64,000 nucleotides of DNA from Thermodesulfobacteriota bacterium (GTDB lineage: Bacteria; Desulfobacterota; QYQD01), in assembly GCA_040754095.1 (NCBI GenBank), contig JBFMFO010000002.1:73853-137852 (forward strand). The letters run 5' to 3'. The notes beneath the pieces were generated by a model. It searched no databases. It was not told the origin of the DNA and was given only the letters and a program-made list of their open reading frames with translations. Every line of letters begins with the position of its first letter. Position 1 is the stretch's first letter. A program made the translations under genes and the position numbers. This document shows, piece after piece, positions 10,282-17,188 of this stretch.

Positions 10282-12540
10282 ATGGACAACGAACCCAAAA
10301 CCTTGCAGGAGATATTAGATGATATTGCACTCAAGGCTATAATGCTGACCCCGGGCAATCTGGTTGAGTTAGGGGAACTCCTCTCCAAGATCGAAGAGGT
10401 TATGGCCTATGATGATACAACCCTCCCGGCAGCTGTAAAGAAGATAGGTAGGGGACTCAAACTTATTATAGAAAAGATCATATTGGGCGAGATACCCGAC
10501 ACGGACGTAGTCTATGAAAAAATAAGCCAGGCCATCTCTATGTTGCAGGATATTTGCAGAGAAAAAGATCATGAGCAGGCCAGCGCTTCTCTTAAAAACT
10601 TTAATGGACTGCTTAAAGAATTAAATCTTCCGGATACGGAAGGGCAAACAGCGGGACAAGATGACATAACAATGGAAGAGGAGGCAACACCTGAAGCTCC
10701 TGTGACCAAAAGCAAACCGGTTATAGACATTACTCAGGATAAAGAATTGCTTACCGGTTTTATTAGCGAGAGCATGGAACATCTTGAACAAATTGAGGTG
10801 GACATCCTCTCCCTTGAACAGTCTCCCGAGGATAAGGACTGCATAAACGCTATCTTTAGACCATTCCATACTATAAAAGGTGTCTCAGGCTTTTTAAATC
10901 TACAGGATATTAACAAGTTAGCCCATGAAACGGAAAATATCCTGGACAGGGCCAGAAACGGCGAACTTTTGATCTCCTCAGAAATTATTGACCTTATCCT
11001 GGACGCCTGTGATGTCCTGAAAAGAATGATAATGGACATAAAAACGGCCTTGGAGACAGGTACATTAGAGCAAAAGGATTACGACCTGGACAGTGTTATT
11101 AGCCGGATAAAGGCCGCACAGGAAGGGGAGGCAGGAAAAGAGGCCGCCTGTCCGGAGTCTAAATTAGTAGGTGAGATACTGGTCGAAAAAGGGGTAGCTG
11201 ATACGGAGGCCATAGATAAGGCCCTGGAAAAACAGCGAGATTCCGGTGAAAAAATCGGGGAGATTATCATCAGAGAGGCCGCTGTTAAACCCAAAGAGGT
11301 CGTCCATGCCCTGCGTGAACAAAAAGCTATGGCCTCCATTGCGTCTGCCGGGACTGCCAATAGCGCCGTCAAGGTGGACATCGGCAAGCTCGATAACCTG
11401 GTAGATATGGTCGGTGAGCTGGTCATCACCCAGTCCCTTATCTGGCAGAATTCCCACGTCCAGGCCATACGGGATCAGAAACTTATGCGTGATTTCTCCC
11501 AGCTAAGCCGTATTACTACTGAGCTACAGAAGACAGCCATGTCATTGCGAATGGTGCCCATAAAACAGACCCTTCAGAAAATGATCCGGTTGGTAAGGGA
11601 TCTGGCCAAAAAATCTGAAAAACAAGTTGATCTTCAGATGAGCGGTGAGGATACAGAGATCGACCGCAATATGGTGGACGCCATTTACGATCCCTTGGTG
11701 CATATGATACGTAACTCTATAGACCATGGCATTGAGATGCCGGATGAAAGAGCAGCTAAAGGCAAGCCGGCCACCGGCACCATATGGTTAAGGGCTTATC
11801 AAAAAGGCGGTAACATTGTGATTGAGATCGAGGATGACGGACAGGGCCTGAACCGCGAGAAGATATTAAAAAAGGCAAAGGAAAAGGGATTGATTAAAAA
11901 CACCGAGGGGCTTTCCACATTTGAAATTGATAATCTTATATTCCAGGCCGGATTTTCTACAGCCGATAAGATAACCGATGTCTCCGGCCGGGGCGTAGGG
12001 ATGGATGTAGTAAAGAAAGCCATAGAGAAGTTGCGCGGCAAGGTGGAGATAAATTCGCGTCCGGGACAAGGTTCTACATTCACCATTAAGGTTCCGCTTA
12101 CCCTGGCTATTATCGACGGCATCATAGTAAAGGTAGGGGTGGAACGTTATATAGTGCCGACAGTGGTCATTAAAGAGACTATAAGGCCGCGGCAGGAAGA
12201 ATATAGCACTGTCCATGGCAAGGGCGAGATGATTAAGGTCAGGGGAAATCTTATCCCGTTAGTAAGATTATATAAGATGTTTGATATTGATGCCGAACAT
12301 AAAGACCCTTGCGAGTCCCTGGTAGTTGTGGTTGAAAACGAAGGACGGCAGAAATGCCTGCTGGTTGATGACCTCCTGGGCAAACAGGAAGTGGTCATCA
12401 AGAGTCTCGGAGACCACATGAAAAATGTCAGAGGACTGGCTGGAGGGACTATTTTAGGAGACGGAAAAGTAGGGTTGATTTTAGATATAAACGGCATATT
12501 TAGTGTGGCTGAAGAACAAAATTTGGGGATGCTGCATTAA
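10282..12540 (+). CDS. cheA: chemotaxis histidine kinase CheA with an extra N-terminal domain and an inserted MshEN-like tandem motif
   Basis: Hpt box FRPFHTIKG, dimerization domain, HATPase (GRGVGMDVV G2 box), C-terminal CheW-like P5 domain; 752 aa. Confidence 0.9.
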   Translation: MDNEPKTLQEILDDIALKAIMLTPGNLVELGELLSKIEEVMAYDDTTLPAAVKKIGRGLKLIIEKIILGEIPDTDVVYEKISQAISMLQDICREKDHEQASASLKNFNGLLKELNLPDTEGQTAGQDDITMEEEATPEAPVTKSKPVIDITQDKELLTGFISESMEHLEQIEVDILSLEQSPEDKDCINAIFRPFHTIKGVSGFLNLQDINKLAHETENILDRARNGELLISSEIIDLILDACDVLKRMIMDIKTALETGTLEQKDYDLDSVISRIKAAQEGEAGKEAACPESKLVGEILVEKGVADTEAIDKALEKQRDSGEKIGEIIIREAAVKPKEVVHALREQKAMASIASAGTANSAVKVDIGKLDNLVDMVGELVITQSLIWQNSHVQAIRDQKLMRDFSQLSRITTELQKTAMSLRMVPIKQTLQKMIRLVRDLAKKSEKQVDLQMSGEDTEIDRNMVDAIYDPLVHMIRNSIDHGIEMPDERAAKGKPATGTIWLRAYQKGGNIVIEIEDDGQGLNREKILKKAKEKGLIKNTEGLSTFEIDNLIFQAGFSTADKITDVSGRGVGMDVVKKAIEKLRGKVEINSRPGQGSTFTIKVPLTLAIIDGIIVKVGVERYIVPTVVIKETIRPRQEEYSTVHGKGEMIKVRGNLIPLVRLYKMFDIDAEHKDPCESLVVVVENEGRQKCLLVDDLLGKQEVVIKSLGDHMKNVRGLAGGTILGDGKVGLILDINGIFSVAEEQNLGMLH

Positions 12541-12551
12541 TTATAATGAAT

Positions 12552-12636
12552 GTCATTAGTCAATAGTCATTTGTCACCGGTAAAAGAGAACAATCTTCCA
12601 CCTTCAACCAATGACCGATGACTGATGACCAGTGAC
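12552..12636 (+). repeat. GTCA-rich long hairpin repeat, family B copy 1
   Basis: gtcattagtcaatagtcatttgtcaccggtaaaag ... ccaatgaccgatgactgatgaccagtgacc; left arm nearly identical to 61307-61341. Confidence 0.7.
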
Positions 12637-12683
12637 CTTGCCTATAAGCTGAAAGCTTATATATGAAAAAGGGGAGTTAAATT

Positions 12684-13064
12684 ATGCCGGCAGATAAGAA
12701 CATGAGAATATTGGTGGTTGATGACTTTAATACCATGCGCCGTATAGTAAAAAATATTCTGAAACAACTGGGATTCGAAAATGTAGGCGAGGCCGAAAAC
12801 GGTCAGGAGGCGCTTGAGGTCTTGAAAAAAGAAAAATTTGACTTCATCATAACCGACTGGAACATGCCGGTTATGACCGGTCTTGATCTGCTTAAGGCGA
12901 TCAAGGCAGACGCCGCATTAAAAGACCTCCCAGTAATGATGGTGACTGCCGAGGCGCAGCAACAGAATATCGTGGAGGCGGTTAAGAATGGGGCCAGCAA
13001 CTATATCGTCAAGCCATTTACGGCCGAGGTTCTGGAAGAAAAGATAAACAAGATATTTAAGTAA
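12684..13064 (+). CDS. cheY: chemotaxis response regulator CheY
   Basis: 126-aa single receiver domain; DD...D...K phospho-acceptor pattern ([16 protein letters not shown]). Confidence 0.85.
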
Positions 13065-13068
13065 TTTG

Positions 13069-15223: not shown

Positions 15224-15267
15224 CTCAATAAATGCCTGCCTGACGGCAGGCAGGGAGGCGGCTTCTT

Positions 15268-15651
15268 ATGGCCTTTAATGTCTTAATAGTCGATGACTCT
15301 ATGGCCATGCGCAGCGTTATACGCAAGGTCATCTCGATTTCCGGCTTCGATGTCGGGGCCTTTTTTGAGGCCGGCAATGGAAAAGAAGCGCTCGAAGTCC
15401 TTAATGGGCAGTGGATAGACCTGGTTCTAAGTGATATTAATATGCCGGAGATGGATGGCCTCACTTTTGTAAAAAAGATGAGAGAGCATGAGATCTATAA
15501 AAACATCCCGGTAGTTATGATAACCACTGAAGGCTCCCAGGCCTGTATAGATGAAGCCATGTCATTGGGGGTTAAGGGGTATATCCAGAAGCCGTTTATG
15601 CCTGAGGTAATTAAGGAAAAACTCGAAGAGATTATGGAGAAGACCAGATGA
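15268..15651 (+). CDS. CheY-like single-domain response regulator
   Basis: 127-aa receiver domain (VDDS...SDINMP...QKPF). Confidence 0.8.
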   Translation: MAFNVLIVDDSMAMRSVIRKVISISGFDVGAFFEAGNGKEALEVLNGQWIDLVLSDINMPEMDGLTFVKKMREHEIYKNIPVVMITTEGSQACIDEAMSLGVKGYIQKPFMPEVIKEKLEEIMEKTR

Positions 15652-16115
15652 ATCCTGCAGATAGAAACGTTTTAACTGTTGTGGTTCAAGAGGTGTTTGA
15701 AACCATGTTTTTTACCTTCGTTGATCCCATAGGCGAAGACGAAATGGGCCAGGTTACGTCACTCCCCGGCCCTTATTTCCATGGTCAAATCGGAGTAAAA
15801 GGCGAGGACCGGAAGAGAGTTCTGGATATCTTTATTCCCGAAGAGATGACCGGCAGCCTGACCGAAACCCTCCTTCGCAAGGAAGAAGATAAGGGTGTTA
15901 GTAAAGAAGAACTTATTGATACGACTAAAGAAATAGCAAACATGGTCCTGGGCAATATCCTGAATAAAACCAATAAAGAAGGAATCCAACGATTAACTAC
16001 GCCTACTGCTGAATTAGTCGGGGACATCTCTCCCTTTGTCAAGGAGTCAGGTGTGGAACGCATATATTTTGAGACCGACTGGGGGACAATGATCGTTCTC
16101 TTTACCTGCGGTTAA
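15648..16115 (+). CDS. cheX: CheX/CheC-family CheY-P phosphatase
   Basis: 155 aa; D-x3-E-x2-N-x21-P motif (DTTKEIAN...P) of CheC/CheX/FliY phosphatases; overlaps the upstream stop. Confidence 0.6.
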
Positions 16116-16135
16116 TATCTCGGAGCTGCAAGATT

Positions 16136-17188
16136 ATGAACACATCCAAGATAAAGGTATTGATAGTCGATGACTCGGCCATTGTCCGAAAGATATTTTC
16201 TGAAGAGTTATCTAAAGAACCGGATATCGAAGTCGTCGGAACAGCGCCCGATCCTTATGTGGCCAGGGATAAGATCGTTAACCTGAAGCCGGATGTAATC
16301 ACCCTGGATATTGAAATGCCCCGTATGGACGGACTGACCTTCCTGGGTAAGCTCATGAAGTACTACCCGCTACCGGTTATAATTGTAAGCTCGCTTACCC
16401 CTGCCGGCGGGAAATTGGCTTTAGAGGCCATTGATACCGGGGCAGTAGAGGTCATCGCCAAGCCCGGCTCCGCTTACAGCGTCGCTGATATGACGGTTCA
16501 ACTCCTTGATAAGATAAGGGCTGCGTCCCATATTAAAGTAACCCAGCGTGCGGCCTCCGCCAAAGAGAGTGGCCAGGCAACCTCGCCAGGCCCGCGTCCG
16601 TCTTTAGCCCTTGCGGAGACTACAAACAAGGTTATAGCCATTGGGGCCTCTACGGGCGGGACAGAGGCCATAAAAGAGGTTCTTACCCAGATGCCGCCTA
16701 ATATACCTGGCATAGTCATTGTCCAGCACATGCCGGCAAATTTTACCACCGCCTTTGCCAATCGCTTAAACGACATTTGTCAGATTCAGGTAAAGGAGGC
16801 CAAAGACGGCGATTCGGTAATAAACGGCACTGCACTGATCGCCCCGGGAAACTACCACATGTTTTTAAGGCGTAGCGGGGCACGTTATTACGTCACGGTC
16901 AAGCAAGGGCCGTTGGTATGCCATCAAAGGCCGTCTGTGGACGTGCTTTTTAGCTCAGTTGCGCAATATGTGGGAAGTAATGCCATAGGCGTAATCTTAA
17001 CCGGCATGGGGGCGGATGGGGCAAGAGGTATGTTAGAGATGAAACAGGCTGGAGCAAAAACGATAGCCCAAGATGAAAAAAGCTGTGTCGTCTTTGGCAT
17101 GCCTAAAGAGGCCATAAGATCCGGCGGAGTAGATGTCGTGGCGCCGCTAAAAGATATACCCAACGAGATTTTTAGGTTGTTCGAATAA
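16136..17188 (+). CDS. cheB: chemotaxis response regulator protein-glutamate methylesterase CheB
   Basis: N-terminal receiver plus C-terminal methylesterase domain (GASTGG, catalytic His/Asp context). Confidence 0.9.

Follow-up and report, generated by a model that had tools for sequence, protein, structure and literature searches.

A che operon of a Thermodesulfobacteriota bacterium with a predicted motor-type cheY in the place of cheW

Can a chemosensory operon that encodes neither the CheW adaptor nor a methyl-accepting chemotaxis protein (MCP) still steer swimming? The question is raised by eight che-type genes at positions 10282 to 17188 of a 64-kb stretch of DNA from a Thermodesulfobacteriota bacterium (assembly GCA_040754095.1, contig JBFMFO010000002.1), which we refer to as the window. 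An earlier note on this DNA had assigned the genes to the "alternative cellular function" systems (e.g., biofilm formation or development) rather than to flagellar chemotaxis, citing the missing cheW and mcp, the HDOD-domain protein encoded in the middle of the cluster, and the sigma-54 activator and PilZ genes next to it. Our analysis favors another answer, to which we give a probability of roughly 60%: the genes would form a functioning chemotaxis operon, one of a class common in Thermodesulfobacteriota, in which a motor-type cheY has taken the place of cheW and which relies on a CheW and receptors with genes elsewhere. On this basis, the operon more likely steers swimming than biofilm formation or development. 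Chief among the grounds for assigning it to flagellar chemotaxis is CheY1, the product of the gene that follows cheA.

All eight open reading frames (ORFs) were present on the plus strand and were identified with Pfam profiles, in the order cheA-cheY1-cheR-cheD-HDOD-cheY2-cheX-cheB. The cheA gene (10282 to 12540) encodes 752 aa with Hpt (residues 155 to 247), H-kinase_dim (361 to 421), HATPase_c (470 to 607), and CheW-like (613 to 742) domains. The gap that follows it (12541 to 12683) lies where relatives carry cheW and contains two inverted 7-nt repeat arrays. The cheW slot is taken by cheY1 (12684 to 13064), a single-domain receiver gene whose likeness to E. coli CheY is described below. Next come the genes for the receptor methyltransferase CheR (13066 to 13893; Pfam CheR, 222 bits, and CheR_N, 60 bits; NCBIfam CheR, 243 bits), the receptor deamidase CheD (13908 to 14393; Pfam CheD, 105 bits), and the HDOD-domain protein (14390 to 15223; Pfam HDOD, 200.6 bits over the full profile, 1 to 196), the last two overlapping by 4 nt. 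The genes for CheY2 (15268 to 15651; Response_reg, 104 bits) and its partner, a CheX-like phosphatase of phosphorylated CheY (CheY~P; 15648 to 16115), also overlap by 4 nt. The final gene encodes CheB, with receiver and methylesterase domains (16136 to 17188; Pfam CheB_methylest, 230 bits, and Response_reg, 70 bits; NCBIfam CheB, 448 bits against a cutoff of 293).

The intergenic distances from cheA to cheB were 143, 1, 14, -4, 44, -4, and 20 nt. The co-directional gene set and the spacing given in the earlier note (gaps of 0 to 140 nt or overlaps of a few nucleotides) thus agree with what we measured, as does its statement that cheW and mcp are absent from the 64 kb. A single operon is plausible, as judged from gene spacing. 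A scan of positions 9000 to 21900 yielded 30 promoter-like sites of the sigma-70 type (23.3 ± 5.0 in shuffled sequence) and 23 terminator-like sites (14.6 ± 4.4), both little above the shuffled level; it placed no terminator-like site between the che genes but is uninformative on operon structure. Upstream of cheA, no sigma-54 promoter was matched at two or fewer mismatches.

Among the likely genes of the window (i.e., ORFs of at least 100 aa, with the longer ORF kept where two overlapped), the Pfam scan detected no MCPsignal domain and no stand-alone CheW domain. A tblastn search of the 64 kb with the CheW and MCP proteins of related clusters returned chance matches only (E ≥ 0.09). The cheA-cheY1 gap held no cheW remnant detectable by tblastn or by alignment with the same gap in three relatives (L012, L013, and L014; locus identifiers are ours). 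The remaining genes of the window are housekeeping genes (rib, nusB, leuS, lptE, fpg, a lipopolysaccharide [LPS] glycosyltransferase block, cmk, rpsA, guaBA, dnaE, and pst/phoU). On a contig of the same strain, the ~8 kb past the window end contained pst/pho genes only, with no che or flagellar genes. An identical CheA is encoded in GCA_049323255.1, a Thermodesulfobacteriota metagenome-assembled genome (MAG) whose 213-kb contig (L001) is ~99% identical to the window over the 23 kb compared, with few intergenic indels. Logan contigs of SRR29635778 are closer to the window than L001 is, since they have in common with it a 200-bp insertion 5' of cheA and the same end-of-window proteins.

What is this operon a version of? 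Relatives of its CheA number in the thousands and come mostly from Thermodesulfobacteriota (45 to 57% identity). We collected 80 loci from species-representative genomes, plus others by exact look-up, and annotated them with profiles made from the window proteins and from the CheW and MCP proteins of relatives; the counts refer to 48 nonredundant loci of the class. The gene order that recurs among them is cheA-[mcp]-cheW-cheR-cheD-HDOD-cheY-cheX-cheB. Within the cluster, cheW was found at 35 of the 48 loci, mcp at 20, CheX at 38, and HDOD, next to cheD, at 46. Members (L016, L020, L028, L032, L034, L036 to L038, L041, L043, L044, L046, L048, L055, L058, L063, and other MAGs) have the same cheR-to-cheB order as the window, the same cheD/HDOD and cheY/cheX overlaps, and the same module in CheA resembling MshEN_N. 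The window differs from them in having a motor-type cheY instead of cheW and no mcp in the cluster. Because HDOD is present at 46 loci and cheW at 35, HDOD marks the cluster class and not CheW-less systems; as far as these gene contents show, it is a near-constant core member of the class.

Only the slot after cheA deviates from the class. A cheY follows cheA also in L012, L013, and L014, whose CheA proteins are 93 to 96% identical to that of the window, and the arrangement as a whole is kept in four lineages with 93 to 100% identical CheA. Two further loci, L009 and L015, encode CheA proteins 68 to 71% identical to that of the window within the same rib-nusB-leuS-lptE-rpsT synteny. Of these two, only the L009 contig runs past cheA; its cluster is cheA-cheR-cheD-cheB-sigma-54 activator, also without cheW. 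In a neighbor-joining tree of the CheA core, the window lineage and L009/L015 form one group, and the sister of this group is a large clade whose members have cheW immediately 3' of cheA. Because of this topology, the CheW-less state is read as a derived, lineage-specific rearrangement of a common cluster. Independently, cheW is missing from the same cluster in L049, L053, L060, and L070.

The gene that fills the slot provides the main clue to the output. CheY1 shares 62% identity with CheY of E. coli, and the NCBI name of a protein identical to it is CheY. Its best match in the PDB is 4hns, labeled "Chemotaxis protein CheY" (166 bits), which we take to be V. cholerae CheY3, the CheY of an F6 motor system; the match to 4hnr, presumably V. 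cholerae CheY4 from an ancestral F7 cluster, reached only 79 bits. CheY1 thus belongs with the motor CheYs of F6 and E. coli and not with the "ancient F7" CheYs, if these structures are the V. cholerae proteins named. A gapless alignment showed that the phosphorylation residues D12, D13, D57, T87, and K109 are retained. Also retained are all the residues that contact FliM in CheY-FliM peptide structures (A90, I95, A103, Y106, V108, K119, and K122). CheY1 therefore looks like a flagellar-motor-type CheY and is predicted to bind the FliM switch.

The nearest homologs of CheY1 outside its lineage (74 to 75% identity) are encoded in flagellar clusters of the form flagellin-flaG-fliD-fliS ... cheY-cheZ-motA-motB ... 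cheA-cheW-mcp. More distant members of the class have CheY1-like genes directly 5' of cheA, which are 56 to 65% identical to it. Since CheY1 is nearer to the cheY-cheZ type than to these upstream genes, the comparison points to acquisition from a flagellar cluster more than to vertical descent at this site.

If CheW is missing from the operon, is the kinase still built for receptor arrays? The layout of CheA consists of an N-terminal helical region (residues 1 to 150), P1/Hpt, an MshEN_N-like module in the place of P2, and then P3, P4, and P5. Each of P1, P3, P4, and P5 was detected with Pfam, and the phospho-accepting His of P1 was read in the sequence FHTIKG. P1 (10744 to 11022, plus strand; Pfam Hpt, 57 bits) had a ratio of nonsynonymous to synonymous substitution rates (dN/dS) of 0.02 to 0.10. 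P5, the CheW-like receptor-coupling domain (12118 to 12507, plus strand; Pfam CheW, 84.9 bits), had a dN/dS of 0.04 to 0.10 in this CheW-less lineage, near that of P4 (0.03 to 0.05) and far under that of the N terminus (0.19 to 0.37). Between close lineages, cheA as a whole had a dN/dS of 0.10 to 0.14, with values of 0.1 or less in P1, P3, P4, and P5. The best solved CheA matches, which we identify as the E. coli core (359 bits) and the T. maritima core (331 bits), gave similar scores that do not discriminate the F class.

These values bear on whether the locus is a decaying, nonfunctional che remnant left after loss of the adaptor. Such decay would account for the lost cheW, for the variable repeat insertions at gene junctions, and for L009, where still more genes are gone. 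However, the eight ORFs are intact with key motif residues conserved, the arrangement has persisted in the four lineages named above, and the dN/dS of cheA indicates that the genes are not decaying; we regard decay as hardly credible.

To our knowledge, the only role of P5 is coupling to CheW and receptors, and we know of no substrates of CheR, CheB, and CheD other than receptors. Because P5 is under strong purifying selection and these three enzymes are intact, CheW and the receptors probably have their genes elsewhere in the genome. A location outside che clusters is common for mcp genes; the che clusters of Geobacter groups alpha and beta, for instance, have none (PMC2577667). Sister clusters give an indication of the receptor type. 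The MCP of the L020 cluster scored 184 bits against E. coli Tsr, without gaps over residues 279 to 492, and 66 bits against a T. maritima receptor. The membrane-proximal ends of the sister-cluster MCPs are ambiguous relative to Tsr, and we describe these proteins as "Tsr-like, 36H/34H-like." An xFxxF pentapeptide, e.g., DFKEF (...EEDFKEF or similar), forms the C terminus of most MCPs encoded in these clusters. A C-terminal pentapeptide of this form is the kind of tether that holds CheR and CheB in E. coli-like systems.

The module between P1 and P3 (11146 to 11322, plus strand) opens another possibility. CheA residues 289 to 347 read KLVGEILVEKGVADTEAIDKALEKQ-RDSGE-KIGEIIIREAAVKPKEVVHALREQ, i.e., two tandem 24-residue motifs of the MshEN_N (GSPII-like) type separated by the 5-residue spacer RDSGE. 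The published MshEN receptor motif for cyclic di-GMP (c-di-GMP) consists of two 24-residue units, RLGxx(L/V/I)(L/V/I)xxG(L/V/I)(L/V/I)xxxxLxxxLxxQ, likewise with a 5-residue spacer (PMC5013675). NCBIfam NF053729 ("c-di-GMP_motif, MshE-related") matched CheA residues 297 to 347 with 46 bits (cutoff, 38). With phmmer, the closest PDB entries were the PilF GSPII-B domain of T. thermophilus (8pe0; 2e-6) and MshE (5htl; 1e-3). An AlphaFold model of the module made with 34 family sequences has four helices and a core predicted local distance difference test score of ~87. In a fold search with this model, the top 13 PDB matches were all PilF-GSPII (mostly c-di-GMP-bound GSPII-B) or c-di-GMP-bound MshE, most of them at a root mean square deviation of ~1 to 2 Å over ~56 residues. 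The isolated CheA linker plus N terminus gave no Pfam match to T2SSE_N or P2 at E ≤ 10, so that recognition of the module came solely from NCBIfam, phmmer, and the fold search. Motif 2 fits a relaxed form of the published pattern, as does motif 1 except for a Leu at its first residue; PilF GSPII-B also has Leu at the aligned position.

A comparable CheA is that of Aeromonas veronii, listed with the architecture HPT-CheY-binding-MshEN_N-...-CheW in a 2016 census (PMC5013675, Supplementary Table 4). Both kinases have a tandem c-di-GMP-type motif between the phosphotransfer and dimerization domains, but the window CheA has no detectable P2/CheY-binding domain, carries Leu for the consensus Arg in motif 1, and lacks Gly10 in motif 2. 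MshEN is not mentioned in a 2023 survey of CheA domain architectures. The predicted fold makes the module a candidate c-di-GMP-binding site, an uncertain one in view of points that we weigh below. We know of no CheA for which c-di-GMP binding has been shown.

Could c-di-GMP then take over the work of CheW and the receptors? In a kinase independent of both, c-di-GMP bound to the MshEN_N-like module, perhaps along with the HDOD protein, would directly set the activity, and CheY1 and CheY2 would be controlled without an array. Such a kinase would fit the absence of local cheW and mcp genes, which extends in the case of cheW to the syntenic L009 and to the four independent losses described above, and it would fit a module that exceeds a curated cutoff and matches a c-di-GMP-bound fold. 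Against it, conservation of the module extends across the whole CheA family, in clusters with or without cheW; because it is equally present in relatives having cheW and mcp, it is no substitute for CheW. The selection on P5 and the intact trio of receptor-modifying enzymes argue in the same direction, and we consider a receptor-independent kinase highly improbable. A broader proposal, which we also hold to be improbable, is that the class represents c-di-GMP-gated chemotaxis. CheA would sense c-di-GMP through the module with HDOD as a partner, and a CheD-containing cluster would have captured an F6-type motor CheY and lost its own CheW, its adaptor being borrowed or dispensed with. This would be a parallel, in another phylum, to the event proposed for the E. 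coli F7 system.

CheX matched its Pfam profile marginally (27.6 bits; cutoff, 27). We searched it for the CheX/CheC-family motif (D/S-x3-E-x2-N-x~22-P) and found D91-x3-E95-x2-N98...P119, with E, N, and P at least 95% conserved in 37 homologs. The conservation of this active-site motif strengthens the weak assignment, and among solved structures CheX is closest to a CheC-like protein (3h2d). A candidate catalytic Cys and a conserved His of CheD, whose catalytic role is our own assignment, are kept in 61 family members. CheY2 has orthologs 47 to 59% identical at the same position in related clusters and is 38% identical to E. coli CheY. The best solved match of the HDOD protein is an uncharacterized HDOD protein (3hc1; 1.7e-32). 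Literature searches on HDOD within che clusters turned up no more than isolated reports of motility phenotypes for HDOD proteins from other settings.

Which known chemosensory system does the operon resemble? The ancestral (stage 1 to 2) F7 systems, e.g., P. aeruginosa Che2 and V. cholerae cluster III, are arranged as cheY-cheA-cheW-aer2-cheR-cheD-cheB (Ortega et al. 2020, PMC7184735). They have in common with the operon a cheA-(cheW/mcp)-cheR-cheD-cheB order and cheD, and its sister clusters encode Tsr-like receptors with C-terminal aromatic pentapeptides. Capture of an F6-type CheY by an F7 cluster has been described (PMC7184735) and parallels what we propose for CheY1. In contrast to these systems, the operon adds HDOD, a second CheY, and CheX, and it lacks cheW as well as the STAS and phosphatase genes. 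Geobacter group alpha clusters consist of cheA, cheW, cheB, and cheR plus a gene for a stand-alone HD-domain protein, without mcp (Tran et al. 2008, PMC2577667). Both they and the operon are che clusters of the former deltaproteobacteria that encode an HD-superfamily protein and lack mcp. However, group alpha keeps cheW, and cheD, cheX, and a motor-type cheY are not reported there; the likeness is one of gene content. The B. subtilis/T. maritima type (F1) combines, as the operon does, CheD with a CheC/CheX-family phosphatase and no CheZ. The window class differs from F1 in having no CheC, in having HDOD, and in its gene order, and the sister-cluster receptors are Tsr-like and not 44H-like as in F1.

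Downstream of cheB lie the two genes that had been taken to point to an alternative function. The first (17659 to 18750, plus strand) encodes a sigma-54 enhancer-binding protein, in which Pfam Sigma54_activat begins at residue 13 and is followed by HTH_8. This activator has no receiver or other N-terminal sensory domain and starts 470 nt from cheB; tblastn detected no receiver-domain remnant 5' of it. The second gene (19044 to 20555, plus strand) encodes a protein with PilZ and PAS domains (Pfam) and a histidine-kinase-like C-terminal part (weak NCBIfam AtoS- and NifL-like matches). It is preceded, 94 nt upstream, by the perfect sigma-54 promoter TGGCACCTTTTTTGCT (18935 to 18950, plus strand), the sole zero-mismatch match to TGGCAC-N5-TTGCW in the 64 kb, which is conserved in L001 and L012. 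Given the 470-nt gap, the missing receiver domain, and the separate conserved promoter, the activator and the PilZ gene are probably not part of the che system; with that promoter, they look like a self-contained neighboring module. Because the region is syntenic with housekeeping neighbors in L009 too, adjacency says little about function. A gene for RtcA (20627 to 21751, plus strand; Pfam RTC domains) follows 71 nt 3' of the PilZ-PAS gene, and the interval from 17659 to 21751 may constitute an Rtc-type RNA-repair module under a CARF-less activator with a c-di-GMP-sensing partner.

Elsewhere in the class, a gene for a receiver-sigma-54 activator stands directly after the che cluster in L025, L027, L029, and L031 (at ~18300 to 21800 in each) and ~2 kb downstream of it in L049 (10797). 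This arrangement hints at transcriptional output in part of the class. Some of the same five clusters have an extra CheD-like ORF 3' of cheX.

These neighborhoods are among the evidence for an alternative-function system, whose output (biofilm formation, aggregation, development, or transcription) would not be the motor and might be relayed by c-di-GMP or by the neighboring activator and PilZ-PAS protein. Such a system would also be consistent with the absence of flagellar genes nearby, with the presence of a sigma-54 activator gene 3' of cheB also in L009 (71% identical), with the co-occurrence of c-di-GMP-related features at this locus (i.e., the MshEN-like module, HDOD, and the PilZ gene), and with the non-motility roles of gammaproteobacterial ancestral F7 systems of similar gene order. 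The reasons for which it had been preferred do not support it: HDOD is not specific to CheW-less clusters, the loss of cheW is derived, and mcp genes often lie outside che clusters. The activator has no receiver domain, is 470 nt away from cheB, and is directly followed by the perfect sigma-54 promoter that precedes the PilZ-PAS gene; adjacency carries little weight, since the whole region is syntenic in L009, upstream housekeeping genes included. The occupant of the cheW slot, moreover, is a CheY of motor type whose closest outside relatives belong to flagellar clusters. We consider an alternative function unlikely.

A working chemotaxis operon thus remains our preferred interpretation, and its mechanism can be sketched with the genes and domains identified above, from which we infer the steps. 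Receptors and CheW encoded elsewhere would control CheA through P5. The receptors, as predicted from the sister clusters, would be Tsr-like, with a terminal xFxxF tethering CheR and CheB. Phosphorylated CheA would pass its phosphate to CheY1, which would then bind the flagellar switch, and would also phosphorylate CheY2 and the receiver domain of CheB. With no CheZ, CheX would dephosphorylate CheY~P, while CheR, CheB, and CheD would carry out receptor adaptation. HDOD would act as a conserved accessory protein, translationally coupled to cheD, and the MshEN_N-like module in the place of P2 may let c-di-GMP modulate the kinase.

Several points weigh against this interpretation. Among the likely genes of the window, Pfam detected no flagellar or pilus domain, and the flagella, CheW, and matching receptors of this organism are things that we infer. 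With the NCBIfam CheY equivalog model, which has a cutoff of 189 bits, CheY1 reached 187.7 bits and so missed it by 1.3 bits. Literature searches returned no experimental study of any member of the cluster class. The gammaproteobacterial ancestral F7 systems, with their similar gene order, do not control the motor (PMC7184735). With respect to c-di-GMP, motif 2 of the CheA module is without Gly10 and the two hydrophobic positions that follow (11 and 12) throughout the family, and the dN/dS of this motif (0.12 to 0.17) is higher than that of the core domains, the linker being the faster-evolving part; binding is uncertain for these two reasons.

Tandemly repeated 7-nt units (e.g., GCTATCA/TGATAGC, GTCATTA, and AACGGTT) form short arrays at 15 sites of the window: 1931 to 1950, 3127 to 3148, 9937 to 9961, 10015 to 10038, 12552 to 12576, 12607 to 12630, 20601 to 20616, 21725 to 21756, 26903 to 26933, 26966 to 26995, 41737 to 41776, 53876 to 53905, 56052 to 56066, 61374 to 61391, and 61412 to 61441. 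Each lies in an intergenic gap or straddles the edge of one, although ~90% of the window is coding, and several are inverted pairs able to form long hairpins. They resemble the STRR (short tandemly repeated repetitive) heptamer repeats of heterocystous cyanobacteria and could possibly serve as terminator or mRNA-stabilizing hairpins. Tandem Repeats Finder assigned period 7 to the two arrays in the cheA-cheY1 gap (12552 to 12576 and 12607 to 12630). Compared with L012, L013, and L014, this gap is variable in repeat content, with an extra insertion in L013, and conservation is confined to the ~55 nt next to cheY1; close relatives have different heptamer units at the same place. Upstream of cheA, a ~230-nt structured stretch (9928 to 10158; predicted fold, -97.8 kcal/mol) includes two heptamer arrays. 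About 200 bp of it is extra relative to relatives: the Logan contig L003 contains the stretch, but neither L001, which is 99% identical, nor L012 does. The stretch looks like a strain-variable repeat or an element resembling a miniature inverted-repeat transposable element in the presumed cheA promoter region.

Farther away, an LPS/O-antigen-type block (28691 to 39565) encodes glycosyltransferases of families 1, 2, 4, and 9, a Wzy-like ligase, and a UDP-N-acetylglucosamine 2-epimerase. Its G+C content is 0.38 to 0.43, compared with ~0.46 to 0.50 around it, and the block may have been horizontally acquired. A 960-aa protein (56128 to 59010) combines a VWA domain with two C-terminal OmpA-family domains. 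An Rfam scan of the whole window returned no family at the gathering score, not even an FMN riboswitch beside the ribE, ribBA, and ribH genes for riboflavin (positions 1 to 2700).

The absence of CheW from this operon is therefore less unusual than it first appeared. The locus would be a rearranged copy of a common cluster, probably flagellar, with no new logic of CheW-less signaling, and the replacement of cheW by an F6-type cheY would be a natural example of the exchange of output modules among che clusters. If the module of CheA binds c-di-GMP, it would link the second messenger of the sessile/motile transition directly to the chemotaxis kinase, and the cluster class would offer a tractable context for the HDOD domain.

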